The notes under the pieces: generated by a model | Database searches by the model: none | What the model was told of the DNA's origin: nothing | Seen by the model: the letters and a program-made list of their open reading frames with translations, nothing else | Part shown: in pieces, positions 1,983-60,400 of the stretch | How positions within the stretch are numbered: the stretch's first letter is position 1 | How the letters are laid out: each line of letters begins with the position of its first letter | Position numbers and translations under genes: made by a program | Origin: Mobula hypostoma | Taxonomy: Eukaryota | DNA: 64,000 nucleotides | NCBI RefSeq assembly: GCF_963921235.1 | Contig: NC_086108.1 | Coordinates: 48,424,001 to 48,488,000, forward strand | Direction: 5' to 3'

Positions 1983-2114
1983 TCCCACCCAGAATTGAAG
2001 GCCTGGCAGAGGAAACAGTCAATGAGGTTATTAGCAATCCCGTCACTTTTGCCTGCGATGCAACTGGCATTCCTCCACCGATATTAACTTGGCAGAAGAA
2101 TGGGATGACCATTG
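1983..2114 (+). CDS. HMCN1: HMCN1 exon ([44 protein letters not shown])
   Basis: catgcag| acceptor, |gtaaga donor; phase 1 to 1. Confidence 0.92.
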
Positions 2115-5100: not shown

Positions 5101-8100
5101 AAACAAAATGCTGATAAAGTAACAACACATCAATTACTTTAAAAATACATTTTGTAGAATAAATCGATCTTTAATTGGTTTGAGTAGCAATAGGCATTCA
5201 TATTACTGACATTTTATAAAGTTTTACATGCTGTAACATAAAATGTTCAGAATGAAATTCTTAATTACTTTTCATTTTGAACTAATTCTACCCTTTATAT
5301 GGTTTTTTAATTACTTCTTGGTTGATCTTGTATGGATAGCTTTCATATTTACAACAGCAACACTTTCTGAAAGTTAAGGTATTCTTCACAATGTACAATC
5401 ATCTAAGCTGGATTCAACTGGTAAGTGATTCAGCAGTTCAATCATCAATAAGCTAAATTCATATTTTTATTAAAGACCACTGCTGTAACTTGCCTCGTAC
5501 ACGGCTTCTCACTACGTCAGAGAGGAATGGAGGGAAATCATCCACTAACCGGAGAAACTCCGGATGCAACGTACCTCTCCTGTCCTTATTAAAGACTAAC
5601 AAATGAGGAGGCATTTACTCCTCTTCCAACTCTTTAATCAGAATCAACTGATTTTAAATGAATGCAAATTGTTTGAATTTTCATCTTTCTATTATCATTT
5701 AACCCTAAAATGGACAATGGCTTCTGACAAGAGTACCAGTAAAATAACTTTCTATTGTGTTTTTTTTTCCTTCAGAAAATGCAGAGTCCTTGGAGATGCA
5801 CATTCTTTCTGGGGGCAGCAAACTGCAGATTGCTCGGTCACAGCTTGCTGACAGTGGCTCCTACACCTGTGTGGCAAGAAATGTGGAGGGGATGGCTCAC
5901 AAAACCTACATCCTGACAATTCAAGGTGCGCAAAAGCCAAGAGTCTAACTACTTTTCCTGCAACATACATCAAAGTTGCTGGTGAACGCAGCAGGCCAAG
6001 CAGCATCTATAGGAAGAGGTGCAGTTGACGTTTCAGGCCGAGACCCTACGTCAGGACTAACTGAAGGAAGAGTGAGTAAGGGATTTGAAAGTTGGAGGGG
6101 GAGGGGGAGATCCAAAATGATAGGAGAAGACAGGAGGGGGAGGGATGGAGCCAAGAGCTGGACAGGTGATACGAGAGGATCATGGGACAGGAGGTACGAG
6201 AAGAAAGACAGGGGGGGGGTTGACCCAGAGGATGGGCAAGAGGTATATTCAGAGGGACAGAGGGAGAAAAAGGAGAGTGAGAGAAAGAATGTGTGCATAA
6301 AAATGAGTAACAGATGGGGTACGAGGGGGAGGTAGGGCCTTAGCGGAAGTTAGAGAAGTCGATGTTCATGCCATCAGGTTGGAGGCTACCCAGACAGAAT
6401 ATAAGGTGTTGTTCCTCCAACCTGAGTGTGGCTTCATCTCCACAGTAGAGGAGGCCGTGGACAGACATGTCAGAATGGGAATGGGATGTGGAATTAAAAT
6501 GTGTGGCCACTGGGAGATCCTGCTTTCTCTGGCGGACAGAGCGTAGATGTTGAGCAAAGCGGTCTCCCAGTCTGCGTCGGGTCTCACCAATATATAAAAG
6601 GCCACATCGGGAGCACCGGACACAGTATATCACCCCAGTCGACTCACAGGTGAAGTGATGCCTCACCTGGAAGGACTGTTTGGGGCCCTGAATGGTGGTA
6701 AGGGAGGAAGTGTAAGGGCATGTGTAGCACTTGTTCCGCTTACACGGATAAGTGCCAGGAGGGAGATCAGTGGGGAGGGATGGGGGGGACGAATGGACAA
6801 GGGAGTTGTGTAGGGAGCGATCCCTGCGGAATGCAGAGAGAGTGGGGGAGGGAAAGATGTGCTTAGTGGTGGGATCCCGTTGGAGGTGGCGGAAGTTAGG
6901 GAGAATAATATGTTGGACCCGGAGGCTGGTGGGGTGGTAGGTGAGGACCAGGGGAACCCTATTCCTAGTGGGGTGGTGGGAGGATGGAGTGAGAGCAGAT
7001 GTACGTGAAATGGGGGAGATACGTTTAAGAGCAGAGTTGATAGTGGAGGAAGGGAAGCCCCTTTCTTTAAAAAAGGAAGACATCTCCCTCATCCTAGAAT
7101 GAAAAGCCTCATCCTGAGAGCAGATGCGGCGGAGACGGAGGAATTGCGAGAAGGGGATGGCGTTTTTGCAAGAGACAGGGTGAGAAGAGGAATAGTCCAG
7201 ATAGCTGTGAGAGTCAGTAGGCTTATAGTAGACATCAGTGGATAAGCTGTCTCCAGAGACAGAGACAGAAAGATCTAGAAAGGGGAGGGAGGTGTTGGAA
7301 ATGGACCAGGTAAACTTGAGGGCAGGGTGAAAGTTGGAGGCAAAGTTAATAAAGTGAACGAGCTCTGTATGCGTGCAGGAAGCAGCGCCAATGCAGTCGT
7401 CGATGTAGCAAAGGAAAAGTGGGGGACAGATACCAGAATAGGCACGGAACATAGATTGTTCCACAAACCCAACAAAAAGGCAGGCATAGCTAGGACCCAT
7501 ACTGGTGCCCATAGCTACACCTTTAGTTTGGAGGTCTCAAAGCTCTACGCTTCTTTTTGGATTCCAGACCTAATCAGTTCCCCTCTACCACCACTCTGCT
7601 CCGTCCAGCGGAATTAGTTCTTACTCTTAAAAATTTCTCCTTTGGCTCCTCCCACTTCCTCCAAACTAAAGGTGTAGCTATGGGCACCCGTATGGGTCCT
7701 AGCTATGCCTGCCTTTTTGTTGGGTTTGTGGAACAATCTATGTTCCGTGCCTATTCTGGTATCTGTCCCCCACTTTTCCTTCGCTACATCGACGACTGCA
7801 TTGGCGCTGCTTCCTGCACGCATACAGAACTCGTTCACTTTATTAACTTCGCCTCCAACTTTCACCCTGCCCTCAAGTTTACCTGGTCCATTTCCGACAC
7901 CTCCCTCCCCTTTCTAGATCTTTCTGTCTCTGTCTCTGGAGACAGCTTATCCACTGATGTCTACTATAAGCCTACTGACTCTCACAGCTATCTGGACTAT
8001 TCCTCTTCTCAACCTGTCTCTTGCAAAAACGCCATCCCCTTCTCGCAATTCCTCCGTCTCCACCGCATCTGCTCTCAGGATGAGGCTTTTCATTCCAGGA

Positions 8101-11100
8101 CGAGGGAGATGTCTTCCTTTTTTAAAGAAAGGGGCTTCCCTTCCTCCACTATCAACTCTGCTCTTAAACGTATCTCCCCCATTTCACGTACATCTGCTCT
8201 CACTCCATCCTCCCACCACCCCACTAGGAATAGGGTTCCCCTGGTCCTCACCTACCACCCCACCAGCCTCCGGGTCCAACATATTATTCTCCGTAACTTC
8301 CGCCACCTCCAACGGGATCCCACCACTAAGCACATCTTTCCCTCCCCCACTCTCTCTGCATTCCGCAGGGATCGCTCCCCACACAACTCCCTTGTCCATT
8401 CGTCCCCCCCCATCCCTCCCCACTGATCTCCCTCCTGGCACTTATCCGTGTAAGCGGAACAAGTGCTACACATGCCCTTACACTTCCTCCCTTACCACCA
8501 TTCAGGGCCCCAAACAGTCCTTCCAGTGAGGCATCACTTCACCTGTGAGTCGACTGGGGTGATATACTGTGTCCGGTGCTCCCGATGTGGCCTTTTATAT
8601 ATTGGTGAGACCCGACGCAGACTGGGAGACCGCTTTGCTCAACATCTACGCTCTGTCCGCCAGAGAAAGCAGGATCTCCCAGTGGCCACACATTTTAATT
8701 CCATATCCCATTCCCATTCTGACATGTCTGTCCACGGCCTCCTCTACTGTGGAGATGAAGCCACACTCAGGTTGGAGGAACAACACCTTATATTCCGTCT
8801 GGGTAGCCTCCAACCTGATGGCATGAACATCGACTTCTCTAACTTCCGCTAAGGCCCCACCTCCCCCTTGTACCCCATCTGTTACTCATTTTTATGCACA
8901 CATTCTTTCTCTCACTCTCCTTTTTCTCCCTCTGTCCCTCTGAATATACCTCTTGCCCATCCTCTGGGTCAACCCCCCCCTCTTGTCTTTCTTCCCGGAC
9001 CTCCTGTCCCATGATCCTCTCATATCCCCTTTTGCCTATCACCTGTCCAGCTCTCGGCTCTATCCCTTCCCCTCCTGTCTTCTCCTATCATTTTGGATCT
9101 CCCCCTCCCCCTCCAACTTTCAAATCCCTTACTTACTCTTCCTTCAGTTAGTCCTGACGAAGGTTCTCGGCCTGAAACGTCGACTGCACCTCTTCCTATA
9201 GATGCTGCTTGGCCTGCTGCGTTCACCAGCAACTTTGATGTATGTTGCTTGAATTTCCAGCATCTGCAGAATTCCTGTTGTTTGCGTTATAACTACTTTT
9301 CCTTCTGCTTTGAGCTTATCATTAGATCATAATATCAGTCTGGTTGCTGTCATAATCAATTTGCTTAGTTTGTGTGCATAACGAGGAAGAACGAAACAAA
9401 GGCAATTGTATAGCAAGTGCAAGAGCGAAGAACATACGAGAACCCTTCACCAACTTTCACCCTCCCAATCCTTTTCATGTTAATGTTAATAATGATCACA
9501 TAGAACAGCATCAGATTTAATAAAAATTATGGTTAATTGAACTTGCTCATGACATACTCCTGGCACCTAATTTCGTCCAGTTACCTTTTATCTGTTCAAT
9601 CCAAACCAGACAGATAACAATCAAAAATTTTAAGATCAGGCTCTGTTTTCACTACGTTTGCAGCATCCTTTAAACCTCCACCTCACCCCTACCCCACTCT
9701 ACCTTGACTTTCTTAAACTTTGAGCTTAGTTTCTCTGAGGTTGCTTTCATTATGTAAGCTCTAACTTCATAAAGTCCTAAAGAATAACCACCTGCCCCCA
9801 CCATTCCTCAGAGTCCGGTTCAGGTTTAATATCACTGACACACAGTATGTTGTGGTATTTGTTGTTTAATGCATCGTAATGCTTCTTACCTCATTCTACA
9901 ACCTATGCACCTTCCAAATTATTTGCTCCTAGTTTTAAAAACCTCTCTGGAACTGGATCATCCTGACTCAGCATCCAAGCTCATCCCAGACTTTCATCTC
10001 TCACTGCACACTTTCCCCTCTCCATCCTCATTTCTGGTGTTTGCTTTGTAACAATCTTGATTAAATCTGCTGTTGCTCAGCATTTGCCTGGCTGCTTCTG
10101 TTAAAAATACTACACGGTAGAATGTAGGTGTTGATTCTGTAACTTTTCAAAAGAGGAATAATGCTACCTTGTTCTAGTCTAGATGTCTTTTCTCCTGAGA
10201 ATTCATTAATGTGACCATCTGAAGTAATAACAATGCTTAGGCAACAAAGGGAAAGAATCAGGGAACAATGACTTGACACACCTCAGTGGAGTAGGTACAA
10301 AAGAAGGAGATGTAATTATCCAAAGAACAGTTTGGTCCCTGAATCTCTCTAATTCATTCCAATTTATTCCAACACATTGAAAAACTGGAAAACTTGAGAA
10401 CATGAAGTAGTAGAAAGAAAATCTCCTACTGAACAGTTAAAAAGAAATGTAAACACGAGGAAATCTGCAGATGCTGGAAATTCAAGCGACACACACAAAA
10501 TGCTGGTGAACGCAGCAGGCCAGGCAGCATCTATGGGAAGAGGTACAGCCGACGTTTCAGGCCGAGAACCTTCATCAGGACTAACTGAAAGAAGAGATAG
10601 TGAGAGTTTCAGTTAGTCCAGACGAAGGGTCTTGGCCCAAAACGTCGACTGTACCCCTTCCTATAGATGCTGCCTGGTCTGCTGCATTCCACCAGTATTT
10701 TGTGTGTATTGCTTAAAAAGAAACATAGTGTTTTCCATAGCAAATACATTTATATTTGTTAAAAAAAACTAAAATCTGATGGCTCCCACATCCATAATTG
10801 AGGGACTTGAAGGGAAATTAGAAACAATTGGACTGAGTGCTTATTTGGAGTAAAAGCTGTAAATCAAATATGATAACAGAATAGAGCTAATGCTGATATT
10901 GCTTAGAACCCCAGGTCAAAGAAGTTTTGCAAAACATTGCATATCCTCCATGTATTTTCAAGATTATAGAGAGATTAGTGGGAAGGTTGGATCGATTGTT
11001 ACAATTTGTGAAAGTTTCAAATACCAGCTCGAAATAAAATAAACCAAGAATAATCAAGCAGATTCTTCCCACCAAGGAATTATAGACCTGTGCAGAACAT

Positions 11101-14100: not shown

Positions 14101-17100
14101 GTTGTCCCCAGGTTACAAATGGAAAAAGTCAAAATGAAGTATTTCCATTTTTTCATTTTATTCACAAATATCATCAATTACTTCAAAGCAAGCAGCAACT
14201 GTTTTTATAGGCTACAGTATGCAACTACTGTTTATAGCAAAGCTATGGTGATAAATTCAATGTGAACATCTGACAATTTTGGCCAAGTTGTCACTTTCAT
14301 CAGGACATGGGACACACTCCTCTGTTTTCTCAACAATGCAAGGAACAATGTTAATCATGACCACAAGAAATACTGAAAAAGGGAACTAAATACAGTTTAT
14401 GAGTAAACGTTCATGTCTTGCTTCAGACATCAACTGAGAAACCACATACCGTGCAGTGGAATATCTTCAAGCACTGTAGAATTACTGTGTGGATCATAGG
14501 TTGAAGTTCTGAAGTAAAGTTTGAGCTTCATTAAGCCAAAGAGACCCTCAGCGGTATCTTGTTGCCAAGTTTCTGAAAAATCTCTACTCTCCAGTGATCT
14601 TTTCCACATCATGTGTCCATAAACTGGATCCGGCAGAGTTGCACACATAAAGTGCTGGAGGAACTCAGCAGGCCAGGCAGCATCTATGGAAACATAGAAA
14701 CATAGAAAATAGGTGCAGGAGTAGGCCATTCGGCCCTTCAAACCTGCACCGCCATTCAGTATGATCATGGCTGATCATCCAACTCAGAACCCTGTACCTG
14801 CCTTCTTTCCATACCCCCTGATCCCTTTAGCCACAAGGGCCATATCTAACTCCCTCTTAAATATAGCCAATGAACTGGCCTCAACTGTTTCCTGTGGCAG
14901 AGAATTCCACAGATTCACCACTCTCTGTGTGAAGAAGGTTTTCCTCATCTCGGTCCTAAAAGGCTTCCCCTTTATCCTCAAACTGTGACCCCCCCCCACC
15001 CCGTTCTGGACTTCCCCAACATCGGGGCCAATCTTCCTGCATCTAGCCTGTCCAATCCCTTTAGGATTTTATACATTTCAATAAGATCCCGCCTCAATCT
15101 TCTAAACTCCAGCGAGTATAAGCCTAGTCGATCCAGTCTTTCATCATATGAAAGTCCTGCCATCCCAGGAATCAATCTGGTGAACATTCTTTGTACTCCC
15201 TCTCTGGCAAGAATGTCTTTTCTCAGATTAGGGGACCAAAACTGCACACAATACTCCAGGTGTGGTCTCACCAAGGCCTTGTACAACTGCAGTAGTACCT
15301 CCCTGCTTCTGTACTCGAATCTTCTTGCTATGAATGCCAGCATACCAGTCGCCTTTTTCACCGCCTGCTGTACCTGCATGCCCACTTTCAATGACTGGTG
15401 TATAATGACACACAGGTCTCGTTGCACCTCCCCTTTTCCTAATTGACCACCATTCAGATAATAATCTGTTTTCCTGTTTTTGCCACCAAAGTGGATAACC
15501 TCACATTTATTCACATTAAATTGCATCTGCCATGAATTTGCCCACTCACCTAACCTATCCAAGTCACCCTGCATCCTCTTAGCATCCTCCTCACAGTTAA
15601 CACTGCCACCCAGCTTCGTGTCATCCACAAACTTGGAGATGCTGTATTTAATTCCCTCATTTAAGTCATTAATATACATTGTAAACAACTGGGGTCCCAG
15701 CACTGAGCCTCACAGTATCCCACTAGTCACCGCCTGCCATTCTGAAAAGGTTCCATTTATTCCCACTCTTTGCTTCCTGTCTGCCAACCAACTGTCTATC
15801 CATATCAATACCATACCCCCAATACCGTGTGCACACTAATCTCCTATGTGGGACCTTGTCAAAAGCCTTTTGAAAATCCAAATATACCACATCCACTGGT
15901 TCTCCCCTATCCACTCTACTAGTTACATCCTCAAAAAATTCTATGAGATTCGTCAGACATGATTTTCCTTTCACAAATCCATGCTGACTTTGTCCATTGA
16001 TTTCACTGCTTTCCAAAGGTGCTGTTATCATATCTTTGATAACTGACTCTAGCAGTTTCCCTGCCACCGATGTCAGGCTAACCGGTTTATAATTCCCCGG
16101 TTTCTCTCTCCCTCCTTTTTTAAAAAGCGGGGTTACATTAGCCACCCTCTAGTCCTCAGGAACTAGTCCAGAATCTAAAGAGTTTTGAAAAATTATCACT
16201 AATGCATCCACTATTTCTTGGGCTACTTCTTTAAGCACTCTGGGATGCAGACCATCTGGCCCTGGGGATTTATCTGCCTTTAATCCCTTCAATTTACCTA
16301 ACACCACTTCCCTACTAACATGTATTTCCCTCAGTTCCTCCATCTCACTGGACCCTCTGTCCCCTACTATTTCTGAAGATTATTTATGTCCTCCTTAGTG
16401 AAAACAGAACCAAAGTAGTTGTTCAATTGGTCTGCCATGTCCTTGTTCCCCATGAACAATTCACCTGTTTCTGACTGTAAGGGACCTACATTTGTCTTAA
16501 CCAATCTTTTTCTTTTCATATATCTATAAAAGCTTTTACAGTCAGTTTTTATGTTCCCTGCCAGCTTTCTCTCATAATCTTTTTTCCCTTTCCTTATTAA
16601 GCCCTTTGTCCTCCTCTGCTGGACTGAATTTCTCCCAATCCTCAGGTGAGCCGCTTTTTCTGGCTAATTTGTATGCTTCTTCTTTGGAATTGATACTATC
16701 CCTAATTTCCCTTGTCAGCCATGGGTTCACTACCTTCCCTGGTTTATTCTTTTGCCAAACTGGGAAAAGAGTAAACAGTTGACGTTTTGGGCTGAGACCC
16801 TTCCAAGTGAAATAGCTTGCCCAAATTCACTGACTTGGCTCACAACCAGGTCAACATTGAGTGAAGTACCAGGTCACCTCAACATCTAGAACATTAGAAG
16901 CTTCAGAAAAAGGAAGAATGAGAAATGAAACTAATGACCTGTTGAATTTAACTTGATGCATTTAAAGTACATCTGTGTCTTATTGTTTATTAATGTATCA
17001 TCATAAATTGTATTTAATTCTCTTTTTCAATATATCTTGTAACATTTTTAAGTTCTTTTATACCATTTATTCAACTAAAAACTTAGAGATATGGGAAATA

Positions 17101-23100: not shown

Positions 23101-26100
23101 ACTGCTGCCTAGGATTTATTTTATTGAACAAGGGTAATATCGTGTGTCTCATGGGTTGAATTTATTATGTGTGTGTATTTGATTTAGTGGGTATGGCAGA
23201 TCGATATGTGAACAGGGCAGCACAGTACGGACCCTTTGGCCCGTGATGTTGTGCCAGACATCAGTCTAACCATTCCCGCCGACACAGTCCGTAACTTTCC
23301 ATTTGTCTTTCATCCATGTGCCTAACCAAGACTCTCAAATGTCCCTAATATATCAGCTTCTACTACCATTCCTGGCAGTGCCTTCAAGGCACCCACAACT
23401 CTTTGTGTAAAGAAAACCCTACCTCTATGATATCTCCCCAAAACTTTCTTCCACTCACCTTAAAAGTATGTCCTCTGGTATTAGCCATGGCCATCCTGAG
23501 GAAGAGGCACTGGCTGTCCACTCTATTTATGAGCATGCGTATAAAGAACATGTTTGCAATGTTGAATGAGACAAGCAGGGATAAACTCCCGCACAGACTA
23601 CACATTCACCGTAACATACATCAAAGTTGCTGGTGAACGCAGCAGGCCAAGCAGCATGCTGCTTGGCCTGCTGCGTTCACCAGCAACTTTGATGTATGTT
23701 GCTTGAATTTCCAGCATCTGCAGAATTCCTGTTGTTTACACATTCACCGTAGTTATTGCATGAGCAGAGTCAAAACGATTCATTACTTTCCATTGTTTTC
23801 TTTGCCGAACGCAGTCCCTCCAAGGATGGATGGCGCTGGTAGCATCAAAGACCTCACGATAGTGAAGGGGAATCCAGCAGCCCTAACATGCATCACTGAT
23901 GGAATACCAATGCCAACATTAGCCTGGCTGAAAGAAACACAACCTCTTAAGCTGAGTCCTCACATGACAGTTGGAAACCAGGGAATGTCACTGCAGATTT
24001 CTGCAGCGGAGGTGGAAGACAGTGGAACATACACCTGTGTGGCTGTCAGTGAAGCTGGGGAGGTCAGCAAACACTTCAGCTTGAAAGTGCTTGGTAAGTC
24101 AGACATAACACACCACCACGAATGAAGGAAAGCTCTGGCAAATAAGTCTGGGCACTGGCCATGGGCAATTGATGGAGGCAGCCATCTCCTAGGCAGAGAG
24201 ACATCAGAAGTTTGTTCTACGGAAAAATCCCCATGGTCAGAGTTCACAGATATATCATTGATAGTTGCCATTGCATCATCTGCTGCTGCAGAAATGGCAA
24301 GTGGTAAATTTTGACACTAAAGCCAGTCACAGTGGTAAGACAATGCATGAAGATTAACTGGCCTACAGAGTGAAAAGTTAAAAACATATGACTAGTTTTA
24401 TTATCGGTTTTGATTTTTTAACTTATTTGTTTAAGAAACTTAGTTTCCATGCATTGGATCACTTGCTTCACTCTTTTACAGAATTTCAAGAAAACTCGTT
24501 TAAGTTTTATTTTATGGCATATTGCAGATCCACCTCATATTAATGGCTCTGATTTTGCGGAGGAAACCTCTGTGGTGGTGAACAATCCCTTAGAACTTCA
24601 GTGTGTTGCCACGGGCATCCCAGCTCCCAAATTGACCTGGATTAAGGATGGACGACCACTGCCTCAGACAGACACCATTCACGTTCTCCGTGGTGGCGAA
24701 GTGTTGAGAATAGAGAACGCTCAGGTGTGGTGCAAGCTCCTATGCAAATTGGCTCTTTCTCTGTAATAGTTGCAAACAGTGTGGAGACATGTGATGATTG
24801 CATATTTCATTGCAGGCTTTGCTTTAACACTAGAGCTTGCAGAAGGAATGCATTAATAGACCTGCTTTAAATAATCTTTATCACTGTAATTAAATAAGTT
24901 ATCGTCAAATGTTTTAGTGTTCACAGAGAGATACTAATACTATTTGCGCCATTGAGGAAATAAAACTTACAAATCCCGATAGTTTTTAAAATCCGGCATA
25001 TTAGATACTTCTGGAAATATTTCTGAAGGTCCAAAAAGGAGGTGCAATTATACACTGGTTTTCTCAGACACGATGTGTATTTTGGAAAGTCTTCCCAAAC
25101 AATGAGCTGCTCCATCAGCAGGAGGAGTATTCCCGCTTCTCAAACCACAGCCTACTGTCACATTGCCCTAGATGTCAGGCACAGTCCTCCTTCCACCCAT
25201 CTACTGTCAAATGGACCCCTTATCTCTTCCAGCGCACAGCACCGCTCCCCTAACCCCTGCCACACGATGTTAGGAAGCAGACTGTCTTCAGTAGCAGGAG
25301 TGGGTTTCACTTGGGGGAAGTGCCTAGTTAGGCGCAATATTTCAAGGTAGGGCTTTCCCCTGCTGGTGATCCCCATCTGAGAAGCACTGGGTGTGCCTGA
25401 GAAAAGGAAAATTTAATAGAACCCTTGAGGGCAAGACTGGAGAAAATTTGACGGAGGGCTAGAGACCAACAAAGGGAGGGGTCTGAGACCAAGTGATCAC
25501 TGGTATCTCTCTCCTCCTCCACTTTGTCTCTCCCGTCCTCTCTCCACTCCTCTCCCCCTCTCTCCCTCCTTTCTCTCTCTCCCTCCTTTCTCTCTCTCCC
25601 TCCTTTCTCTCTCTCCCTCCTTTCTCTCTCTCCCTCCTTTCTCTCTCTCCCTCTTTTCTCTCTTTCCCTCTCTCTCTCTCTCTTCTACATCTCTCCACAC
25701 CCCCTCTCTCTCGATCCAAACATTAAATATTCCTTTACCCACTCTATTTCTCCATTTCACCCCACCCCTCATCAATTATTCTCTCTGATCTGAGCCAGAC
25801 CTGCCCATGAAGATCCTTCCTCTTGTAATTCCCGTGCCTATATTCACTCCCACTGTTTCATTAGTAAGGAGCCTGGTGGGATAAAAAGCCATGTCCTGCT
25901 CCTACTCTCTGCTGTCTATGATTCTAAGGATAGGCCATGCCTTGTAGTGTGTAGTTCTCAGCCACATGGATATTGAACAGTTTATGGCAGGATGCAGGAT
26001 TTTTAAAGAATTGTTTTCTAAAACTGAAGTCCTCAAAAATGTAATGGTTTATACATTGGGTTTTATAACCTATGTGGTAGAATTGCTAATGTACCTCTGT

Positions 26101-27376
26101 GTCAATTTTTATTCAGGCACACAGAGGTTTCCTCATTATGTCTACAAGGTTCTCCAATAAAACTGGAAAGTAATGAAGTTTTATAAATCTGATAGTGACT
26201 GTTTCACAGAAGTGATGTGAGAATAAAGCTTATCACATCAATACTTTAGTCCGGCATTTCACTCCCCGTTATTGTTGCTATGATACAATAAACATAGAGC
26301 ATTACAGCATAGTACAGGCCCTTGAGCCCACAATGTTGTGTCGACCTTTTAACCTACTCGAAGATCTATCTCACTCTTCCCTCCTACATAGCTCACCATT
26401 TTTCTATCATCCATGTGCCAATGTAAAGGCCCTAACAATATTAAATAAATGTAGATTATTTTAAGGCTTTTGTGTTTTTTTTCCCCTATGGCAGGTGCAA
26501 GATACAGGCAGATACACTTGCCTGGCATCCAGTATAGCAGGAGATGATGACAGAGAATATTTGGTGAGGGTGCATGGTAAGTTAACAGAATACATGGACA
26601 TGCCGTAGAGATGGGCTGTTGACATTAGAATCTCTGATTAACTCATACAGCTTATTGTCTGTCCTTGTGGCATAAACTTTTGACTGAATTTCACTGTACA
26701 TCTGACCAGATCAATTTCCATCATGACAATGCAACTCAGAGACATTGACCCTTCATGGGTTTACCAAACACAGGAAACCTCATGCCAAATGGATATAACT
26801 GTGTCATTTTGATTAGCCATACATGATATTGGACTTAATTCACCACACCGGCAGAAAGAATTTAAGTAAAGAATGCGCGGTCGCTTGAACATTTAAGTCA
26901 GGATTTTCAACTTTGGCTTCCAGGTGTGGCAAGAAAGTTGGGACAGGGAGGGGAAAGGGAGGCATTTATATCAAATACAAAAGAGTGTTGCAGGTACTAG
27001 GGTACGTAGTGGATACAGAAGAGAGGAAACTGTGTGGACTAGGTTAAGGCTGGGGCACTGTACATTAAACAAAACATTGAAGATGATAGGGAAACACCAG
27101 ACAGGATTGTGTGAGGAATGTCAGGAAGAGGAGTCAGTAGAACATGTAGTTCTGAGTTGCAGGAAGTATGGGATACAGACAGAGATGATGAGAATTAATC
27201 TAAGGGATTTGGGGGTGCAGGAATTCACATTAAAAGGGTTGCTGGGCATAGGTGAGAGAGCACAGGTCAGGGTATTTTTAGCTTTCTTAAGGGGTACAGG
27301 GATTTTTATAGAATATGATGGATAAGCGGGAATAGGGTACTAGGGTGGCCAAAGATGGGAGGATAACATGTAGGTT

Positions 27377-27413
<37 letters not shown>

Positions 27414-42400: not shown

Positions 42401-45400
42401 TTAATAACTAGAGTAGTTGCGGGTTAATTGCAACACATCAGGATTAGAACATTTTGGCACAGTTAAGCCGCTGCCATAATTGGTCGAAGTCTCATGGAAA
42501 CAGTTAAAATGGTATAAAAGGACAAACTGAGTAGTAAATTATGTATTAAATTAAATAATGGAACAAATTAGAACACTACCAATAGTACTACAGTATAAAA
42601 CTGTGTATTAGTGCCTAATAGTAATCAATAGAAGAATTCATCCCTAATGCACAATGAGCAAAATCATTACGGACACCAAGTGCAGATAATGGATTGACTT
42701 CATACAATGTTACCAATGACTGCATTCTCCAAATACTCACTTTAATTGTAACATTCAGCATGACTGTTGATGCCTTCAAATTTTTTATAGTTCCTAACTT
42801 GTTGAAGTAGTGAAATCATTTAATTTTCACTCCTGGACGATTCTGGTATCTCCAAGCCTGAATGTTTGAAAGGACAGTGAGAAAAACAGTTCTGAATTGT
42901 CTTGCTGCTTATTCCTCGTCAACTGTCACTGACAAAAAAAATCACTTTTTTAATGCACAATACACACATTACTGATGCCATTAAACAACTGATCACTCTA
43001 AGTGCAGTGTAGCATCTAACAGCCACAGAAGAGCACGTGACTGGTGCTAGTTAGAACTTATACGGCAACAGTCTCCAGTGGCAAAGTGTCCCAAATAAAT
43101 GAAAGGAATCCCTGCAATTTTCTCAATTAGTTTTTGTCCTTTAAGAGTTGTCCCAAATAAGTGACTGCTCCAATTAGCCAATGGCCAATTAAGTGGAATC
43201 CACTGTATTACCCATAGTAATATTAATGGAACCACAATTTATTAAAGTAAGTTAGTCAATTCTTTACTCTGAAAAAAATATATTGTGAGTTTTGATATCA
43301 ATCCAGATGTACATGAAGGGGGAATGGCCACTCTCCACTTCCCTTCACAAATACTGCTGAATTTATATTCCTCTGTACACTCATGTATCAGGTCACATCA
43401 CCTGTTGCATAAAATATGCAGAGTCCCATTGATACAAATAACCTCTCAGTATGGAATTCCATCTGTTGCTATTGGAATCATTTACCTCAGTTAATAACTT
43501 GCTGCGATTTAATGTTTATTGCTATACTTAGAAAAATGGTTGGTTAATTAGACCATAAAACCAAAAGATAGAGCTGCAGAATCGAAGCGGCTCTGCTATT
43601 TCATCATGGCTGTTCCAATTTTCCTCTCAGCCCCAATCTCCTGCCTTCTCCCTGTATCCCTTCATGCCCTGACCAATCAAGGATCTATCAACTTCTGCCT
43701 TAAATATACATAAAGACTTGGCCTCCACCTCTGCCTGTGGCAAATAATTCCACAGATTCAACACTCTCTGGCTAAGGAAATTCCTCCTCATCTCCGTTAT
43801 AAAAGGACACCCCTCTATTTTAAGGGTGCGGACCTAGACTCTCCCACCATAGGAAACATCCTCACCACATCCACTCAATCAAAGCCTTTCACTATTCCAA
43901 AAATGCTGGTGAACGCAGCAGGCCAGGCAGCATCCATAGGAAGAGGTACAGTCGACATTTTGGGCGAGACCCTTCGTCAGGACTAACAAATTTCCTCATG
44001 TTTGCCTTTCACTATTCAATAGGTTTCAATGAGGTTACCCCTCGTTCTTCTGAATTTTAGTGAATACAGGCCCAGAGCCATCAAACACTCTTCATATGAC
44101 AAGACATTCAATCATGAAATCATTTTCATGAACCTCCTTTGAACCCTCTCCAGTTTCAGCACATCCTTTCTAAGATAAGAAGCCCAGACCTGCTCACAAT
44201 ACTCCAAGCGAGGCCTCACCAGTGCTTTATAAAGTTGCAACATTATATCCTGTCTTTTATATTCTAGTCCTCTTGAAATGAATGCTAACATTGCATTTGC
44301 CTTTCTCACCACAGACTCAATGTGCAAATTAACCTCTAGGGAAGCATGCACAAGGACTCCCAAGTCCCTTTGGACCTCAGTATTTTGAATTTTCACTTCA
44401 TTTAGAAAATAGTCAAACCTTTCTTTTCTCCTACCAAGGTGCATGACCATACACTTCCCGACAGTGTATTCCATCCGACATTTCTTTGCCCATTCTCCTA
44501 ATCTGTCTAAGTCCTTTTGTAGAAAAATAAGTACATTCCCCTCCACCTCTCTTCATATTGTCTGCAACTTTTACAACAAAGCCATCAATTCCGTTATCCG
44601 AATCACTGCCATACAACATAAAAAGAATTGGTCCCAACATATACCCCTGTGGAACACCAGTATTCACCAGCAGCCAGCCAGAAAGGGCTCCCTTTATTCC
44701 TTCTCTTTGCCTCCTGCCAATCAGGCACTGCTTTATCCATGCAAGAAACTTCCTTGTAATGCCTCATATATGGCACCTTATCAAAGGCCTTCTGAAAATC
44801 CAAGTACGTTACATCAACTGATTCTCCTTTGTCTATCCTGCTTGTTATTTCTTCAAAGAATTCCAACAAATTTGTCAGGCAAGATTTTCCCTTAAGGAAA
44901 TCATGCTGACTATGGCCTAATTTATCATGTGCCTCCAAGTACCCTGAGACCTCATCCTTAATAATCGACTCCAATATCTTCCCAACCATTGAGGTCAGAC
45001 TAACTGGCCCATTGTTTCCTTTCTTCTGACTTTCTCCCTTCTTGAAAAGTGGAGTGACATTTGCAATTTTCCTGTCTTCTGGAACCATTGCAGAATCTAA
45101 TGATTCTTGAAAGATCATTACCGATGTCTCCATGATCTCTTCAGCCACCTCTTTCACAACTCTGGGGTGTACACCATCTGGTCCAGGTGACTTATCTACC
45201 TCCAAATCTTTCAATTTCCCAAGAACCTTCTCTCTAATTATGGTAACTTCACACACATGCCCGCTGACTCCTGGAACTTCCACCATACTGCTAATGTTTT
45301 TCACAGTGAAAACTGATGAAAAATACTTATTCAGTTTGTCCACCATTTCATTGTCCCTCATTACTACCTCTCCAGCACCTTTCTTCAGCAGTCCAATATC

Positions 45401-48400: not shown

Positions 48401-51400
48401 TGAAGCTGTTCATCCTTTCCACCACTGACCTTTCAGTGAGGATTGGTGCAGCTCCCCTGACTTCCCCTGTTTGAAGTCTACAATCAGTTTTTGCTGACAA
48501 TGAATTCAAGGTTAATATTGCGATACCACTGGGAATGAGCTATCAGCCAATATTAAGCATAAAGTTTATACATGGAGAATATATTGATTGGCTACATCAT
48601 AACCTAGTATGGAAACACCAAGGCTTTTGAATGGAAGATCATATAAATTGAGCATGCGGAATACTAAGGACATTAAGGATATTTTCCTATATAAAGACAC
48701 ACCGCAGAGATTAAGTCAGCCTGCAAGTAAAAATATATTTTCATTGACTTTAAATTTTAAGGAAGATTTTATCCATTTTAATTATTTTGTTACTTTTCTG
48801 ATTACTTTAACATGTAGGCACCTTTTGGCTTGTGACAGATCTTTATTATTGTACAACAAGTAAACTATAAATATATTATTATTGTACAGTTAGCTTTTCT
48901 TTCACCACAACTTCTTGTTAATTCAGGAACAATTGAGATCAGTGCTGCCCAGCTCAATCACACAGGAAGATACACATGTATTGCAAAGAATGCTGCTGGC
49001 TCTGCACGTAGGCAAGTCAATCTCCGTGTGCAAGGTAGGTAGTTATATTTACACAATTTTATTTCCATGATCAGGAATTAAAACACCATTCATTGTGAAG
49101 TAAATTACTTTTGTTTTCATCACTATTCCTTCCCAATATCACAGTCATGCCAATTTACTCAATCATTCAAGGGACTATTTAATCAGTTGTATAAGAATCT
49201 CCAGTCACCGGGAGTTTATTGCATTGCTTTTCTTTGTTGGATTGCATAATTTTGAAATCAAACATATTGTAAGCATATAGCTCTTCAAGAAAGAACAACT
49301 ATTTGCAACTCCAGTTGGTTTTAGACTGAGCTAATAGTCACATTTCAGAACACTCTCTACTTTTACTTACTCTTAGGACTCTTAACTTTGGCCTTAGTTT
49401 TATCTACTATTGAAAAGTAGGTTTAACTTGTTCAACCAAATTCTGGCCATCATACCTCCTCCCAGTCTGGAAGCGAGATTGTCAGAGATACTCTCACCCA
49501 GGTTCTTACTCATACAGTCTCAATCAGCGCTTATGTTTCATGGCTTTCAATAGGTACAAGTTGAAATTTCAAATCCTCATCCTAGCCTTCAAATCTGTAT
49601 GTGATATCACTCCTGGCCTTTTTTTCAGTAACCTCTAGCTTTACAAACCTTGTAGATATTTGTGCTCCTCCAAATCTGATCTCCAGATCAAACCCACCAT
49701 TGGCAGCTTTACTCTGAGCTGCCAACACTTTGGAATTCTCTGTGAAACTGCTCCCCTATCCATCTTTCCTCCTTTTAAGATTCTCCTTGAGAGGTGATCT
49801 TAATGAAACACACAAGACTCCTGCTGACATGAAAGGATAAATATCAAAATGTTGTCACAATTGAGGAACTCAAACAATGGGACATAGTTAGAAGATTAGT
49901 CGTTGGTCATTTAAAAACTGAGGTGTGGAGGAATTTGTTCTTGCAGAGCATGAAGAACCTCTGGAATTCTCTACCCTGGAGGTTTGAAGAGGCTAGATCT
50001 TTTAGGATATGTAAAAGAGAAGTAGATAAAATTTTGAACAGTCAGGGAAGAGAGGCTGATGGGGAACTGACACAAAGGAGACATGTGAGTACAGGGCAGG
50101 CCTGAGGGGCCAAAACACCTCTGCATACTGCTGTATTCTTATGTTCTGAAGTTTTATATCCATCTTATTTCCCTGTCCAGTTGCTTCACTCCAATGGCTT
50201 TCGATTTCTTTACACTTCCCAGTACCATTTCATTTATTTTATATTTCTTTGTTGCATTTAGACTAATTACGTTTTTCTGCACAGTTGACTAGATAATTTT
50301 TTCTCCTTCCTCAGTCAAAAGTTTTCCCTCTCCTATGAAGCACACAGCTGAACTCCCCCCTCTGATCCCAGCTCTCATCCGTGCCGGATCTTTACCATCC
50401 CCTCCGACCTTCAACTGTCTGAGGCAGAACGCTCTGTCCTCAGTAAGGGCCTCACTTTTGTCCCCCTTCGCCCACACCTCAGCGAGTTCCGTGTTCGCCA
50501 TGATGCGGAACTCTTCTTCTGCCGTCTCCGTCTCCAAGCCTACTTCTTGGCAAGGACTCTTCCACCCCCACCGATGATCCCTTCTCCCGCCTTCAACCCT
50601 CCTCCTCTTCATGGACACCCCTACTCTGGTCTTCTGCCTGCCCTGGATCTCTTTATTGCTAACTGCGAACGGGACATCAACCGTCTCGACTTCACCACAC
50701 CTTGTTCCAATTCCAACCTCACTCCTTCCGAACACTCTGCTCTCCACTCCCTCCGCACTAATCCTAACCTTATTATTAAACCCGCCGATAAAGGGGGTGC
50801 TGTTGTAGTCTGGCGCACTGACCTCTACCTTGCCGAGACACAGCGACAACTCACAGATACCTCCTCTTATTTGCCCCTCGATCGTGACCCCACTAAGGAG
50901 CACTAGGCCATTGTCTCCCACACCATCGCCGACTTTATCCGCCCAGGGGATCTCCCACCCTCTGCTACCAACCTTATAGTTCCCACACCTCGCACTTCCT
51001 GTTTCTACCTCCCACCCAAGATCCACAAACCTGCCTGTCCTGGCAGACCTATTGTCTCAGCTTGCTCCTGCCCCACCAAACTCGTTTCTGCATACCTCGA
51101 CACGGTTTTATCCCCCCTTGTTCAATCCCTTCCTACCTATGTTTGTGACACTTCTCACACTCTTAAACTTTTCGATGATTTTAAGTTCCCTGGCCCCCAC
51201 CGCTTTATTTTCATCATAGATGTCCAGTCCTTATATACTTCCATCCCCCATCAGGAAGGTCTCAAACCTCTCCGCTTCTTTTTGGATTCCAGACCTAATC
51301 AGTTCCCCTCTACCACCACTCTGCTCCATCTAGTGGAATTAGTCCTTACTCTTAATAATTTCTCCTTTGGCTCCTCCCACTTCCTCCAAACTAAAGGTGT

Positions 51401-54400
51401 AGCTATGGGCACCCGCATGGGTCTGAGCTATGCCTGCCTTTTTGTTGGCTTTGTGGAACAATCTATGTTCCATGCCTATTCTGGTATCTGTCCCCCACTT
51501 TTCCTTCGCTACATCGACGACTGCATTGGCGCTGCTTCCTGCACGCATGCAGAGCTCGTTGACTTTATTAACTTTGCCTCCAACTTTCACCCTGCCCTCA
51601 AGTTTACCTGGTCCATTTCCGACACCTCCCTCCCCTTTCTAGATCTTTCTGTCTCTATCTCTGGAGACAGCTTATCTACTGATGTCTGCTATAAGCCTAC
51701 TGACTCTCACAGCTTTCTGGACTATGCCTCTTCTCACCCTATCTCTTGCAAAAATGCCATCCCCTTCTCGCAATTCCTCCGTCTCCGCCGCATCTGTTCT
51801 CAGGATCAGGCTTTTCATTCCAGGACGAGGGAGATGTCCTCCTTTTTTAAAGAAAGGGGCTTCCCTTCCTCCACCATCAATTCTGCCCTCAAACGCATCT
51901 CCCCCATTTCACACACATCTGCTCTCACTCCATCCTCCCGCCACCCCACTAGGAATAGGGTTCCCCTGGTCCTCACCTACCACCCCACCAGCCTCCAGGT
52001 CCAACATATTATTCTCCGTAACTTCCGCCACCTCCAACGAGATCCCACCACTAAGCACATCTTTCCCTCCCCATCGATTGGGGAGCTTTCCACAGATTGC
52101 TCCCTACGCGACTCCTTTGTCCATTCGTCCCCCCCATCCCTCCCCATCGATCTCCCTCCTGGCACTTATCCTTGTAAGCAGAATAAGTGCTACACATGCC
52201 CTTACACTTCCTCCCTTACCACCATTCAGGGCCCCAGACAATCCTTCCAGGTGAGGCGACACTTCACCTGTGAGTCGGCTGGGGTGATATACTGCATCCG
52301 GTGCTCCCGATGTGGCCTTCTATATATTGGCGAGACCCGACGTAGACTGGGAGATAGTTTTGCTGAACACCTACGGTCTGTCCACCAGAGAAAGCAGGAT
52401 CTCCCAGTGGCCACACAATTTAATTCCACATCCCATTCCCATTCTGACATGTCTATCCACGGCCTCCTCTACTGTAAAGATGAAGCCACACTCAGGTTGG
52501 AGGAACAACACCTTATATTCCATCTGGGTAGCCTTCAACCTGATGCCATGAACATTGACTTCTCTAACTTCAGCTAATGCCCCACCTCTCCCTCCTACCC
52601 CATCCATTATTTATATACACACACGTTCTTTCTCTCACTCTCCTTTTTCTCCTTCTGTCCCTCTGACTATACCCCTTGCCCATCCTCTGGGATCCCCCCC
52701 CCCACTTTTCCTTCTCCCTGGGCCTCCTGTCCCATGATCCTCTCATATCCCTTTTGCCAATCACCTGTCCAGCTCTTGGCTCCATCCCTCCCCCTCCTGT
52801 CTTCTCCTATCATTTTGGATCTCCCCCTCCCCCTCCCACTTTCAAATCTCTTACTCACTCTTCCTTCAGTTAGTCCTGACGAAGGGTCTCGGCCTGAAAC
52901 ATCGATTGTACCTCTTCCTAGAGATGCTGCCTAGCCTGCTGCGTTCACCAGCAACTTTGATGTGTGTAGCTAAACTTTGGGTCAGCTACAGATTTCTCGA
53001 TCGTGCCCCCTGCATATACCTCTCCCCACAATAAAAGTCAAGAGACTAGTTTTGAGACCTGTAGAACCCACTGGTAACAATCCTCCGGTCACAAAAGCAC
53101 AACTCAACCACTATCCTAAGCAGAGTTTGAATCCAATTTCCCATGAATCCTATGCATTTCAACTTTTTTGCCCACTCTGCCATGCTGACCTTAGTCAAAA
53201 ACTTCACTGAAATCCGTTTGACCTACTACAGTCATTCCTCTCATCAACTCTACTTCTTACTTTCTGAAAAAAAATCAGTCAAGTTGGTCTTTATTCTCTG
53301 GAGCACAGGTGAATGAGGGGAAATCATATTGAGGTATACAAAATTATGGGGGTTATAGGAAGGGTAAATGTTTGCAGGTTAAGTAGAACTGGAATTAGAA
53401 AGCATAGGTTTAGGGTGAAAAGTGAAATGTATAAGGGAAATATGATGGGGAGCTTCTTCACTCAGAGGATTGTGTGAGGATGGAACAAGCTGTCAGCATA
53501 AGTGATAGATGTGAGGTTAATTGTAATATTTAAGAGAAGTTTGGGTAGGTACATGGACGAGAGGGTTATGGAGGGATATGATCCAGTTGCAGATAGAGGA
53601 AACTAGGCAGAAGACCAGGCTGGCATGGAGTAGATTCAAGTACGTTTATTATCAAGGAACGTAAAAATTATACAACCTTGAGATTTGCTTGCTCACAGGT
53701 AGCCACAGAGCAAGAAACACAAAAACATAGAAACATAGAAACATAGAAACATAGAAAATAGGTGCAGGAGTAGGCCATTCGGCCCTTCGAGCCTGCACCG
53801 CCATTTATTATGATCATGGCTGATCATCCAACTCAGAACCCAGCCTTCCCTCCATACCCCCTGACCCCTGTAGCCACAAGGGCCATATCTAACTTCCTTT
53901 TAAACATAGCTAATGAACTGGCCTCAACAGTTTGCTGTGGCAGAGAATTCCACAGATTCACCACTCTCTGTGTGAAGAAGTTTTTCCTAACCTCGGTCCT
54001 AAAAGGCTTCCCCTCTATCCTCAAACTGTGACCCCTCGTTCTAGACCTCCCCAACATCGGGAACAATCTTCCCGCATCTAGCCTGTCCAATCCCTTTAGG
54101 ATCTTATACGTTTCAATCAGATCCCCCCTCAATCTTCTAAATTCCAACGAGTACAAGCCCAGTTCATCCAGTCTTTCTTCATATGAAAGACCTGCCATCC
54201 CAGGAATCAATCTGTTGAACCTTCTTTGTACTCCCTCTATGGCAAAGATGTCTTTCCTCAGATTAGGGGACCAAAACTGCACACAATACTCCAGGTGTGG
54301 TCTCACCAAGGCCTTGTACAACTGCAGTAGTACCTCCCTGCTCCTGTACTCGAATCCTCTCGCTATAAATGCCAGCATACCATTCGCCTTTTTCACCGCC

Positions 54401-57400: not shown

Positions 57401-60400
57401 TATCTTTTGTAAAGACAGCTGCTAAGTATTAGTTAATGATTATAAGATCAGAGAAACACACAGCACAGAAACTGACTCTTTCAGTCACAACACTTGTACT
57501 GGTCATGGTGGCCATCTGTATTAGGCCTGTAACCCCTTATATCTGTCCTATCTAAGTACCTGTCCGAACACCTTACTGAACTTACCTTTTTGATTGCTAA
57601 CAAGCCATGCATGTTAAGTTCTTATCTTTTACACACTTACAGAGTCTTTTTTTTACCTATTTTATTTTTACAGGCCTTCCCCTTATCCTTATAGTCTCTG
57701 GGCTTTCTGCTGCATTAAATTGGAATTAGGTTCTTGGTATCTGCACAAATATTCCTTTCACCCTACAAGATTTGTTCACTAAAACTAAATCTGGAATTGA
57801 CACCCAGCTACTTTGTTGAATGTGCAAAAGAAATTGTCATAAATGCAATTCTGGAAATCTGTGTCCTCTATCATTTACACTGGTTATATCTCCGTTAATA
57901 TTGGAATGACTGAATTCACCCACATATTGCTACTGTAGTGTACCAGATTTGTACTTCTATTTTCCCAATACACTCTCAACAGTCTATTTCCCTTATTTTG
58001 ATTCTTTAGTTCAACCCATCTTATTTTATTTAATGATCCTTGTAAAATATTATTCCATCTGACAGATTGTTTCTTGAATTAATATGGCTGCTGTCTCATT
58101 TCTTACTCCTCTGTGTCACATGAGAACCCTGTAGCCAGGAATTTTAAGCTTCCAGCCCCTTAAGTTTGTAAATCCCACACCAACAGGTTCAATGACAACT
58201 CCTCTTCAACCATTTTGTTGTTGAGCCAACTGGTAAAACCTTTTCACTACAGTTTAGCAACACTTTGACCATTTTGCATTAAAATCGGCTTTGTTTTGTT
58301 TTATTCTGATTGTGTTTTATTGTGTATAATTTATGCTTACTCTATGTTTTTCTTGTGAATGATGCTTATATATGCCATGTGCCTGTAATGCTGTGCAGAG
58401 TAAGTTTTTCTCTTCACCTGTGCATACATGTGCTTGTGTATTGGACAATAAACTTGACTTTGTAATTACTGGGCGACTTTGTAATTAGTGAGCCAAAGGG
58501 TCTGTATGACTTTATAAAGTACTCAACATAATATGCAAAATTCATAAAACGTTTTGGGCATTCGACAGCACTTAAAGTCTTGCTCAGAAGGACCGCAAGC
58601 TTGTTTGAATCCACACTTCCTTTCCAAGCCATTGATCCATGACATCAGTGCCCTCATTAATGGCCACCAGAGTGTACGGCAGGCTTTATCATTTCCGTGG
58701 CATTTCAATGATAACCTCATGGCTATGCTATCATAATCTGATTTTGAAATGCACCAGGATAGCCTTGGCATTCCATTTACCTTGAGGGAGAACATAAACT
58801 ATGGTTCTATACAAATTGACAGCAATTTCCAAAACTCTGAATCACAAACTTGATTGACTTGATCTGCAATTAGAACAAATATAGTTTGGAGTGGAAAGTA
58901 CTGAGAAGCACTAGAACAGACTTGTGCTCTTTATCTTGGCTTTGAAGTTTAAACATTGAAAATGAGTGACCTTACTTTTTGATTGGTTGCAAGTTTTATG
59001 GTTCTTTATCAATGTGATTCAATTTTACATCTAGAACCTCCTGTGATTCAACCTCAGCCCAGCACTCTGGAGGTGATTCTGAATAATCCTATTACTCTTC
59101 CATGTGAGGCAACTGGAAACCCAAACCCCACAATTACATGGCAGAAAGAAGGCATTAGTATTGACACCACAGGTAAAGTAGTCATCATCATTTCTTAATT
59201 CCAAATAAAACTTTGAAGTTTACTAAATTCTGAAAGTAGTAAGGCTATTGAAATCATCAGGCAAATAATTCACTTCATTTCTATATCCTTACTTTGAACT
59301 ACCATGAATTAGTAACATTTCTTCATAAAAATTGAATGGACATCTACTATCCTTCACAAAATGCGGGACGAACTCAGCAGGCCAGGCAGCATCTATGGAA
59401 AAGAGTGGACGGTTGATGTTTTGAGCTGAGACCTTTCATCAGGCTGAAGAGTCTCTGCCCAAAATGTCGACTGTTTACTCTTTTCCATAGATGCTGCCTG
59501 GCTTTAAGAGTTCCTCCAGCATTTTGTGTGTGTTGCATGGATTTCCGGCATCTGCAGATTTTCTCTTGTTTGAATTATTATCATTGCTTAGCATGATTTC
59601 ATCCAGTGGTTCTTAAGGTAATATTTTGTCTTTGCAGTAGGAGCTTACACTGTCCTACTCAATGGAGGTCTTCAGATTGCACGAGCTGCAGTGAAAGACA
59701 CTGGGACGTACATGTGTGTTGCACAGAACCCATCTGGCACAGCGCTGGGAAAGATTAGGCTGAGAGTGCAGGGTAAGTTGCTCTGTAAATTCTGAACTCT
59801 TAACATTGAGCCAAATGACAGGTAATCTTGTCATTCACTTTAATAATTTTTGTAACACACTATAAGACAGTAATCTTTTCTCAGCTGCTCACGTTTGCAA
59901 CAGGCCAGTAATTGAATTACCACCAGTTGTGAAGAAGGCCTGAGTCACAATTTCTAGCAGAAGACCAGGATTCATTATTCCATTGTGAAATACCTTTTAC
60001 TGAGAAATAAAAGTTGTCTTTGGCCTAACAGCAGACTCTACAATACCCTTCCCTTCCAACAATTTACTCTGTGACCTGGACCCCATGTATACGCAGGATT
60101 ACTTTAGGTTCAATCTACCTGCAGCCGTATAAGGCATAGCTTGCGGTCACAGGGCTGGTCACCTGGGCTGACAACAGTGTTCCTCTCGCAGTGCAGTAAA
60201 CCTGCTGGCCTTAAGCAATGACCAGTGCAGCTTCTCCTTTGATTTAACAACAAACCTTGCCAAACTTCCGCTCTCACACCAGGACTGAATCAACAGACAC
60301 GAGCTCTGTTTTCCTTTCCTGCTGGTATCTCTGTCAGCTATCTGGTACAATTTCCAACGTATCAAAATGTTATGATTTCTGAATTCCAGGTGGTCAGATG

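Follow-up and report, generated by a model that had tools for sequence, protein, structure and literature searches.

Penelope-like elements (PLEs) that encode an endonuclease (EN+ PLEs) leave complex insertions, and an inverted architecture with a tail on one side is already known for them (PMC3846280, PMC8557442, PMC2377424). The accessible portions of these three accounts describe an inverted 5′-truncated copy with an optional tail of 30-40 bp, often at one end, and call the target-site duplications (TSDs) variable. One of them describes an inverted pseudo-long terminal repeat (pLTR) and a tail, gives TSDs of 8-10 bp for single copies in Adineta and proposes self-priming (PMC3846280); EN-mediated resolution of the tail was proposed as well (PMC8557442), and minimal hammerheads have been described in PLEs (PMC4209133). 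Here we report on a PLE family of Mobula hypostoma (genome 3.48 Gb), starting from a stretch of 64,000 nucleotides (NC_086108.1, 48424001-48488000), which as a whole we call the window. In many of its insertions two 5′-truncated copies lie head to head inside one TSD of 13-15 bp. Judging from the sequences, these two-armed insertions probably arise from a symmetric complex that nicks and primes both target strands. That both strands are primed is the firmer part of this reading and quite likely; that both arms are copied from the same RNA would have close to an even chance.

With the EN+ PLE insertions described so far, as those portions present them, the Mobula element shares 5′ truncation, partial tandem pLTRs (in the sampled sequences L121, L122 and L123 and in block C18), a head-to-head inverted copy, a tail at one end, a TSD and a hammerhead in the pLTR. 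It differs in the length of the TSD (13-15 bp, against 8-10 bp or variable) and in its AA..TT target preference, there being no symmetric target motif in those accounts. They treat the tail as optional or one-ended and give no counts, whereas here one end of each kind was found in 46-47 of 47 young two-armed copies. The self-priming or EN resolution that they invoke is contradicted for most pairs by the lengths of the Mobula arms.

The protein of Anolis Poseidon (PAc) cleaves and extends both strands, starts at two RNA sites, which mark the limits of the tail, and is a predicted dimer; the later integration steps were left unvalidated in that in vitro work (PMC11167929). Its accessible text and three text supplements contain nothing on TSDs, stagger or inverted products. 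In common with the Mobula element, so far as that text goes, are two 3′ end classes one tail length apart (here ~38 nt), the use of both strands, AT-rich targets and a hammerhead cut that is not the 5′ end. PAc belongs to a different clade by its linker. Its tail lies at least 111 nt inside the open reading frame (ORF), whereas the Mobula tail is in frame and upstream of the homologue-aligned methionine, and it prefers ATT at the cut, whereas the Mobula element prefers TT 7-8 nt off. As the PAc biochemistry agrees with double priming, we counted it as support.

In LINE-1 twin priming both strands also prime cDNA on the element RNA, and joining by microhomology produces an inversion within one TSD; the second cDNA starts from a variable internal upstream site and the two parts do not overlap. 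In the Mobula copies, by contrast, both arms start within ~40 nt of one end and overlap almost wholly, giving a palindrome. The literature searched, which also drew on accessible parts of PMC8969392, PMC9977147, PMC12910113 and bioRxiv 10.64898/2026.07.22.740005 and had most subscription papers outside it, held no report of obligate mixed pairing of ends, of a fixed 13-14 nt stagger or of a symmetric PLE target.

Inverted copies in the window

A preliminary description of the window had proposed seven inverted insertions of one architecture, five of them bounded by TSDs. The copies are listed here, with positions in the element unit (~3.5 kb) where these matter; tail and tail-less denote the two classes of 3′ end, and RT stands for reverse transcriptase.

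5946..5959, left TSD copy of 14 bp, an exact repeat of 9290-9303
5960..7534 (-), arm with a tail-less 3′ end, unit 1889-3475, covering the C-terminal half of RT, the EN domain and the 3′ untranslated region (UTR)
7532..9289 (+), arm with a tail 3′ end, unit 1763-3511
9290..9303, right TSD copy of 14 bp
10437..10727, two-armed copy from an older subfamily: 10452-10609 (-) with the tail end, 10608-10712 (+) tail-less
23599..23751, the smallest among the young two-armed copies: 23614-23657 (-) tail-less, 23656-23736 (+) with the tail end
37374..38577, two-armed copy: tail arm 37388-37995 (-), tail-less arm 37992-38563 (+)
40696..41424, inverted old copy, arms 72-83% alike, left arm without pLTR
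43884..44017, two-armed copy: tail-less arm 43898-43987 (-), tail stub 43988-44003 (+) of 16 nt
59355..59572, old two-armed copy: tail-less arm on the left (-), tail arm on the right (+), arms 79% alike

All five TSDs proved real, four of them exact at the positions first given. Those of the 37388 copy (37374-37387/38564-38577) and the 43898 copy (43884-43897/44004-44017) are exact over 14 bp, and that of the 23613 copy (23599-23613/23737-23751) is 15 bp at its maximum, with one base shared with the element. The TSD of the 10452 copy (10437-10451/10713-10727) matches at 13 of 15 positions, with 11 exact bases, and its two mismatches suggest the decay of a single CpG (TG versus CA). Inverted arms with outward 3′ ends were verified at 5960, 10452, 23613, 37388 and 59355. 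The second arm at 43898 is a 16-nt stub that matches the tail of the 10452-type older subfamily. The architecture claimed for all seven copies is present only in part at 40696-41424, where the left arm has no pLTR and no TSD was found. At 59355-59572 the best TSD is degenerate (8/10). The arms of 5960-9289 overlap by 3 nt at their central junction and diverge by 1.7%, and the GIY-YIG Pfam match in the 5960-7534 arm lies under the curated cut-off. Both arms of the 23613 copy run from unit 3429, and at 37388 the tail-less arm extends beyond the tail arm by 32 nt on the 5′ side.

End pairing, target duplications and target site

Family-wide counts were obtained from 141 sequences: the window, seven unselected blocks (320 kb in total) and 133 loci found via similarity to the window copies. 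These held 235 clusters, from which 49 cut by a sequence edge, 68 of <88% identity and three without a 3′ end were excluded. The 115 that were kept comprised 47 two-armed and 61 single-armed copies, and seven with an irregular second end that stayed outside the pairing counts.

One tail and one tail-less end were found in 46 of the 47 young two-armed copies. In the lone exception the tail arm is split by a later insert of 2,025 nt, and when re-read its outer ends are a tail and a tail-less end within a 14-bp TSD. The insert itself (L040, G000:C2:50040035-50042252) has direct terminal repeats of 235 nt that are 94% alike. One of the 46 mixed pairs (L058) is a composite of two neighbours and has no TSD. 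Single-armed copies outside our tail-biased search used the two ends almost equally (26 tail, 22 tail-less), and therefore half of the pairs would be expected to be mixed if ends were chosen independently. Outside that search 29 of 30 pairs were mixed before the exception was re-read (p = 2.5e-8), and the tail-biased set contained no tail-tail pair among 16 simple cases (p = 6e-4). The two end classes were 33-47 nt apart in 37 of 39 measured pairs, with a median of ~38 nt, and tail-less ends also stood alone, with TSDs, in single-armed copies.

The TSD score was at least 10 in 44 of the 47 young two-armed copies, a value that none of 150 shuffled flank pairs reached (maximum 9). Whether TSD lengths are random was a check suggested in the preliminary description; they are narrow, with 38 of 44 at 13-15 bp (one each at 11, 12 and 19 bp, 11 at 13, 17 at 14, 10 at 15 and three at 16). 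Single-armed copies reached a TSD score of at least 9 in 42 of 61 cases (null maximum 8 in 73 draws), with lengths of 9-16 bp and a mode of 13, and their lengths differed from those of the two-armed copies (p = 1e-5). These lengths follow a maximal-repeat rule, which lengthens TSDs by chance bases. One fixed stagger of 12, 13 or 14 did not reproduce the histogram and was rejected; a mixture of 13 and 14 fitted better.

The TSDs were AT-rich (68% versus 58%). Counting outward from the TSD edges of 83 sites, we found T at +7 in 114 of 166 flanks (69%) and at +8 in 109 of 166 (66%), with a background of 29%, and T was at baseline at +10 to +13, +15 and +16. The enrichment at +7/+8 was present on both sides and in both two-armed and single copies, and it was seen again in 15 held-out, mostly older copies (20/30 at each of the two positions, p = 2e-5). 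The span from AA to TT peaked at 27-28 nt, that is 2+6+13 or 14+6, and the stagger is therefore 13-14 nt. The target observed is a symmetric AA-N6-[13-14]-N6-TT, as a preference, and all 86 scored sites were distinct targets. An enrichment of C just beyond the TSD was put down to the maximal-TSD rule and set aside. In 18 singles with TSDs of at most 12 bp, a small sample, the far T peak was steady at 19-22 from the primed nick and smeared from the other end, as would be expected of a fixed cut geometry with a trimmed unused overhang.

Origin of the arms and alternative explanations

Paired arms that overlap by at least 60 nt had an average divergence of 2.3%, where the family median is 4.1%, and were closer than this median in 37 of 38 pairs; the preliminary description had made its reading depend on such a difference. 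In only 10 of the 38 pairs did the arms match the closeness of the nearest other copy, and there is therefore no sign of wholesale homogenisation. Of 752 diagnostic positions, 54 (7.2%) differed between the two arms, where comparison with other copies gave 31%, and rare alleles were common to both arms in 34 of 196 cases (0.5% expected). Among the 36 simple pairs the tail-less arm reached further 5′ in 23, the tail arm in eight and neither in five (p = 0.011); the direction was the same in three larger search sets, and the excess of the tail-less arm was at least 25 nt in 20 pairs. Since in 23 pairs each arm has sequence absent from the other, neither was copied from the other; most likely both arms were reverse-transcribed from RNA. 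The longer tail-less arms fit two polymerases on one RNA, one leading and one trailing, short of proof. A correlation of arm lengths (rho 0.54) was discarded, as the search sets differ in length. Double priming with a stagger of about 14 nt, as first proposed for the window, agrees with the peak of TSD lengths, with that of the AA..TT span and with arms that are mostly not each other's template.

Breakpoint combinations differed in all 36 simple pairs. At the central junctions that were resolved, 16 had an overlap of 0-6 nt (mean 1.5, 0.58 by chance) and six had fillers of 1-22 nt. The 3′ ends showed slight microhomology to the target (1.2 versus 0.74 nt with the tail-biased set removed), and the long tail-end microhomologies of the first search set were attributed to search bias and discarded. 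Arm 5′ ends clustered before the hammerhead, with 23 of 133 at unit 3368-3383, a number inflated by the tail-biased search, and none at 3400-3419. Ribozyme cleavage was rejected as the source of the 5′ ends, as the cut would be expected after 3408 and the cluster lies elsewhere; the cluster may represent the RNA 5′ end.

In the course of events that we propose, an RT-EN protein, probably a dimer, would bind the RNA at the pLTR-ORF junction, and each EN half would read TT 7-8 nt 3′ of its own nick, leaving 3′ overhangs of 13-14 nt. With slight base pairing, the two 3′-OH would start at different sites, one of them tail-less and the other tail; both start sites would probably lie on one RNA, and the cDNA starting upstream would lead and usually extend further. 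End joining, with 0-6 nt of overlap or short fillers, would then unite the two cDNA 3′ ends. If only one nick were primed, the other overhang would be trimmed, yielding the commoner single-armed copy with a shorter TSD. In its most specific form, which we advance tentatively and rate below an even chance, a symmetric dimer would read AA-N6-[13-14]-N6-TT, cut both strands and load its two RT sites on the tail ends of one RNA as leading and trailing polymerase, so that the tail would be the footprint of their spacing and the inverted structures the direct product.

Several observations weigh against this account. The 7.2% disagreement between arms is above the background of 1.1%, and the arms of L058 and L122 differ at several subfamily sites; some arms may come from different RNAs or may have been converted later. 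Shared alleles demonstrate that the source locus was common to both arms, which does not extend to the molecule, and they might equally result from conversion between arms. The junction overlap is modest, and just 22 of 36 junctions were resolved. Within the window the target motif is incomplete at most of the five sites, with AA at -8/-7 in one of five and TT at +7/+8 in two of five. The scored copies were mostly chosen by similarity to window copies, and the dropping of edge-cut clusters (49/235) under-samples long insertions. The accessible PAc text reports no difference in start site between strands (PMC11167929), and pairing of one end of each kind per molecule is neither shown nor excluded there.

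The alternative that survives best retains double priming and assigns a separate RNA to each arm, so that two ribonucleoproteins (RNPs), usually from the same active source locus, would be involved and an asymmetric complex would fix the start sites. It is favoured by the excess of diagnostic-site disagreement and by the unlike arms of L058 and L122, and few active source loci per cell would likewise give shared alleles. Independent RNPs, however, offer no simple cause for 46 mixed pairs in 47 or for the longer tail-less arm, and a few positions of recurrent mutation in the pyrimidine-rich 3′ UTR account for many of the disagreements; on balance we regard this explanation as unlikely.

A still less probable course is one in which a tail-primed cDNA folds back or primes itself and is copied back to its own start, EN resolving the hairpin ~38 nt short. 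It would account for the one-of-each ends and the near-identical arms together, it is compatible with the eight of 36 pairs in which the tail arm is longer and the five of equal length (e.g., 5960 and 23613), and some short pairs do have palindromic junctions. Yet it needs the tail-less arm to lie inside the tail arm, which is contradicted in the 23 pairs noted above, in 20 of them by 25 nt or more, the tail being carried by the tail arm alone, and tail-less ends that stand alone with TSDs speak against it as well. A rescue by later deletion in the tail arm is opposed by the clean junctions.

We give very little credit to the view that the hairpins are non-autonomous DNA transposons (miniature inverted-repeat transposable elements, MITEs), which look alike as short copies with terminal inverted repeats and a TSD, or that a first copy was joined by a second insertion or by recombination next to it. 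Against this view stand 36 of 36 simple pairs with their own breakpoint combination, no central junction repeated, 86 distinct targets, a single TSD round both arms, asymmetric ends and shared rare alleles. The fixed internal structure with symmetric termini that marks many copies of a MITE was thus not found among the 36 simple pairs. Long inverted repeats are a known class of artefact, which counts for an assembly or library origin from fold-back chimeric reads, but the arms are 0-6% divergent, asymmetric and bracketed by TSDs, and contigs from three further public runs terminate at the same two window positions (near 23701-23704 and 23737-23741), which makes such an origin scarcely credible. 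In four sequencing runs examined over 23300-24200 no contig spanned the 23613 insertion and no empty site was seen.

Frequency, element and host locus

In the 320 kb of unselected genome, script calls gave 14 two-armed and 33 single-armed copies, and three manual corrections (one missed pair, one internal tandem pLTR and one arm of a pair) changed these to 15 and 29. The two-armed share is thus 15/44, or 34% (95% confidence interval (CI) 20-50%). Two-armed insertion is a major but not the main outcome, and to call it the family's normal mode of integration is an overstatement, as singles were about twice as common. Inverted structures are nonetheless common, not rare, and the hairpins expected throughout the genome were found at ~47 per Mb (95% CI 26-77, seven blocks). 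Single-armed copies may conceal very short second arms of the kind seen at 43898.

Some sampled insertions were more complex. L004, L087 and L128 hold four- to six-piece insertions that mix tandem and inverted segments, in L004 and L128 inside one TSD. At the central junction of a two-armed copy in L086 (1741-2382) a 160-nt EN-coding piece is repeated ~5 times in tandem, and shorter re-copied pieces were found in L150, L161, L170 and L179; such pieces suggest template jumps before joining. In L058 (954-2363 and 7577-8289) a two-armed copy is seemingly part-duplicated 6 kb off, beside another two-armed copy, and the arms of the L058 copy carry different subfamily alleles in the pLTR.

Seven of the 12 copies in the window are inverted. 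The five single-armed pieces, absent from the preliminary description, and the hammerhead motifs are as follows.

641..757 (+), single-armed old 3′ end of a related subfamily
1311-1343, tail fragment, single-armed
14642..14702 (-), single-armed fragment of an old 3′ end
16763-16803, single-armed copy
50353..52971 (+), long single-armed copy with a tail-less end and a broken ORF, including 50907-52577 (RT, Cys linker, GIY-YIG EN)
9150..9185 (+), minimal hammerhead motif by pattern scan, present also at 38487 (+), 52872 (+) and 10582 (-)

No TSD was found for 50353-52971. From its sequence the element is a GIY-YIG PLE with a Neptune-type linker. Pfam matches on its protein (RVT_1, E = 5e-5; GIY-YIG, E = 5e-4) are both below the curated cut-offs. 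The RT motif YIDD and the GIY-YIG-like VIYC..LYIGET are kept in seven of eight aligned proteins; the remaining one has a truncation or gap at that place. The CxxC between GIY and YIG, part of a CCHH zinc-finger motif, is also present in seven of eight, and both His in six of eight; the 50907 copy has Gln at the second His, which the 6340 and 8454 copies retain. The linker that joins RT to EN, C-x4-C-x2-C in the window copies and in homologues, falls within the CX2-5CxxC definition that the accessible text gives as a feature of Neptune and Nematis (PMC8557442). By this linker the clade would be Neptune or Nematis, which it does not separate, and the homologue matches are unnamed as to clade. 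With Neptune, as described there, the element has in common a C-terminal GIY-YIG EN with the CCHH residues and the C-x4-C-x2-C linker. The N-terminal EN and lack of a canonical hammerhead that define Naiad/Chlamys were not found, as the element has its EN at the C-terminus and carries a hammerhead motif. The closest named protein relatives are from rays (76-91%), sharks (60-67%) and marine invertebrates (~45-52%).

The element has a single ORF, with RT followed by the C-terminal GIY-YIG, and in L116 a frame of 660 aa is open from the pLTR into RT. Residues 196-310 of this ORF, after the N-terminal domain and before RT, form a Pro/Ser-rich stretch of ~115 residues, of which each of 39 aligned homologues covers less than 70%. 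Elsewhere, full-length copies are built as partial tandems, with pLTR and tail running into the 5′ region of the ORF. The pLTR-tail directly joins this region in L111, L115, L116, L120 and block C18, and partial tandems form pLTRs also in the three L sequences named at the outset. Such tandems, together with 5′-truncated copies, place the element among EN+ PLEs. The tail is in frame with the ORF, and the Met aligned to the homologues' starts lies 27 codons past the pLTR ATG. The pLTR measures 95 nt, and in four window copies its pattern scan gave the minimal hammerhead (stem I, CUGANGA, stem II, GAAA, stem I), whose cleavage is predicted from the pattern; an Rfam scan of the window gave no match at the gathering score, hammerhead included. 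RNA folding of the pLTR-tail-ORF junction was as stable as in shuffles (z = -0.6), and a special start-site hairpin is therefore unsupported.

The gene that contains the window has immunoglobulin I-set exons (Pfam match), and we take it to be hemicentin-like. Three two-armed insertions lie ~35-130 nt from host exon boundaries (5926-5960, 37261-37388 and 23737-23814), and the 3.3-kb hairpin of the 5960 copy begins ~34 nt past a likely GT donor; these insertions may be candidates for an effect on splicing. Among other repeats, a palindromic non-Penelope element at 2270-2803 (arms 2344-2503 and 2579-2738, 90% complementary) is probably a MITE, with ends resembling mariner-type terminal repeats. 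A 1047-aa open frame at 53833-56976 (-) belongs to an endonuclease-RT LINE that on visual inspection is CR1/L2-like; decayed relatives of it lie at 14978-16148 and 44112-45511. Disrupted frames at 19265-21070 (-) look hAT-transposase-like by eye, and a long (CT)n-rich simple repeat at 3200-3950 gives rise to spurious ORFs.

How PLEs end their integration, and why their ends are inverted with a tail on one side, are questions that the numbers from the Mobula family make directly testable. The values to be tested are nicks set 13-14 nt apart, TT at a distance of 7-8 nt from either nick, a single start site for each nick and arms of the same source, and the idea of a self-copied hairpin is contradicted for most pairs. 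For the host, extrapolation from 320 kb gives a load of ~10^5 inverted repeats (90,000-270,000), many of them intronic, and these repeats would supply double-stranded RNA and DNA hairpins on a large scale.

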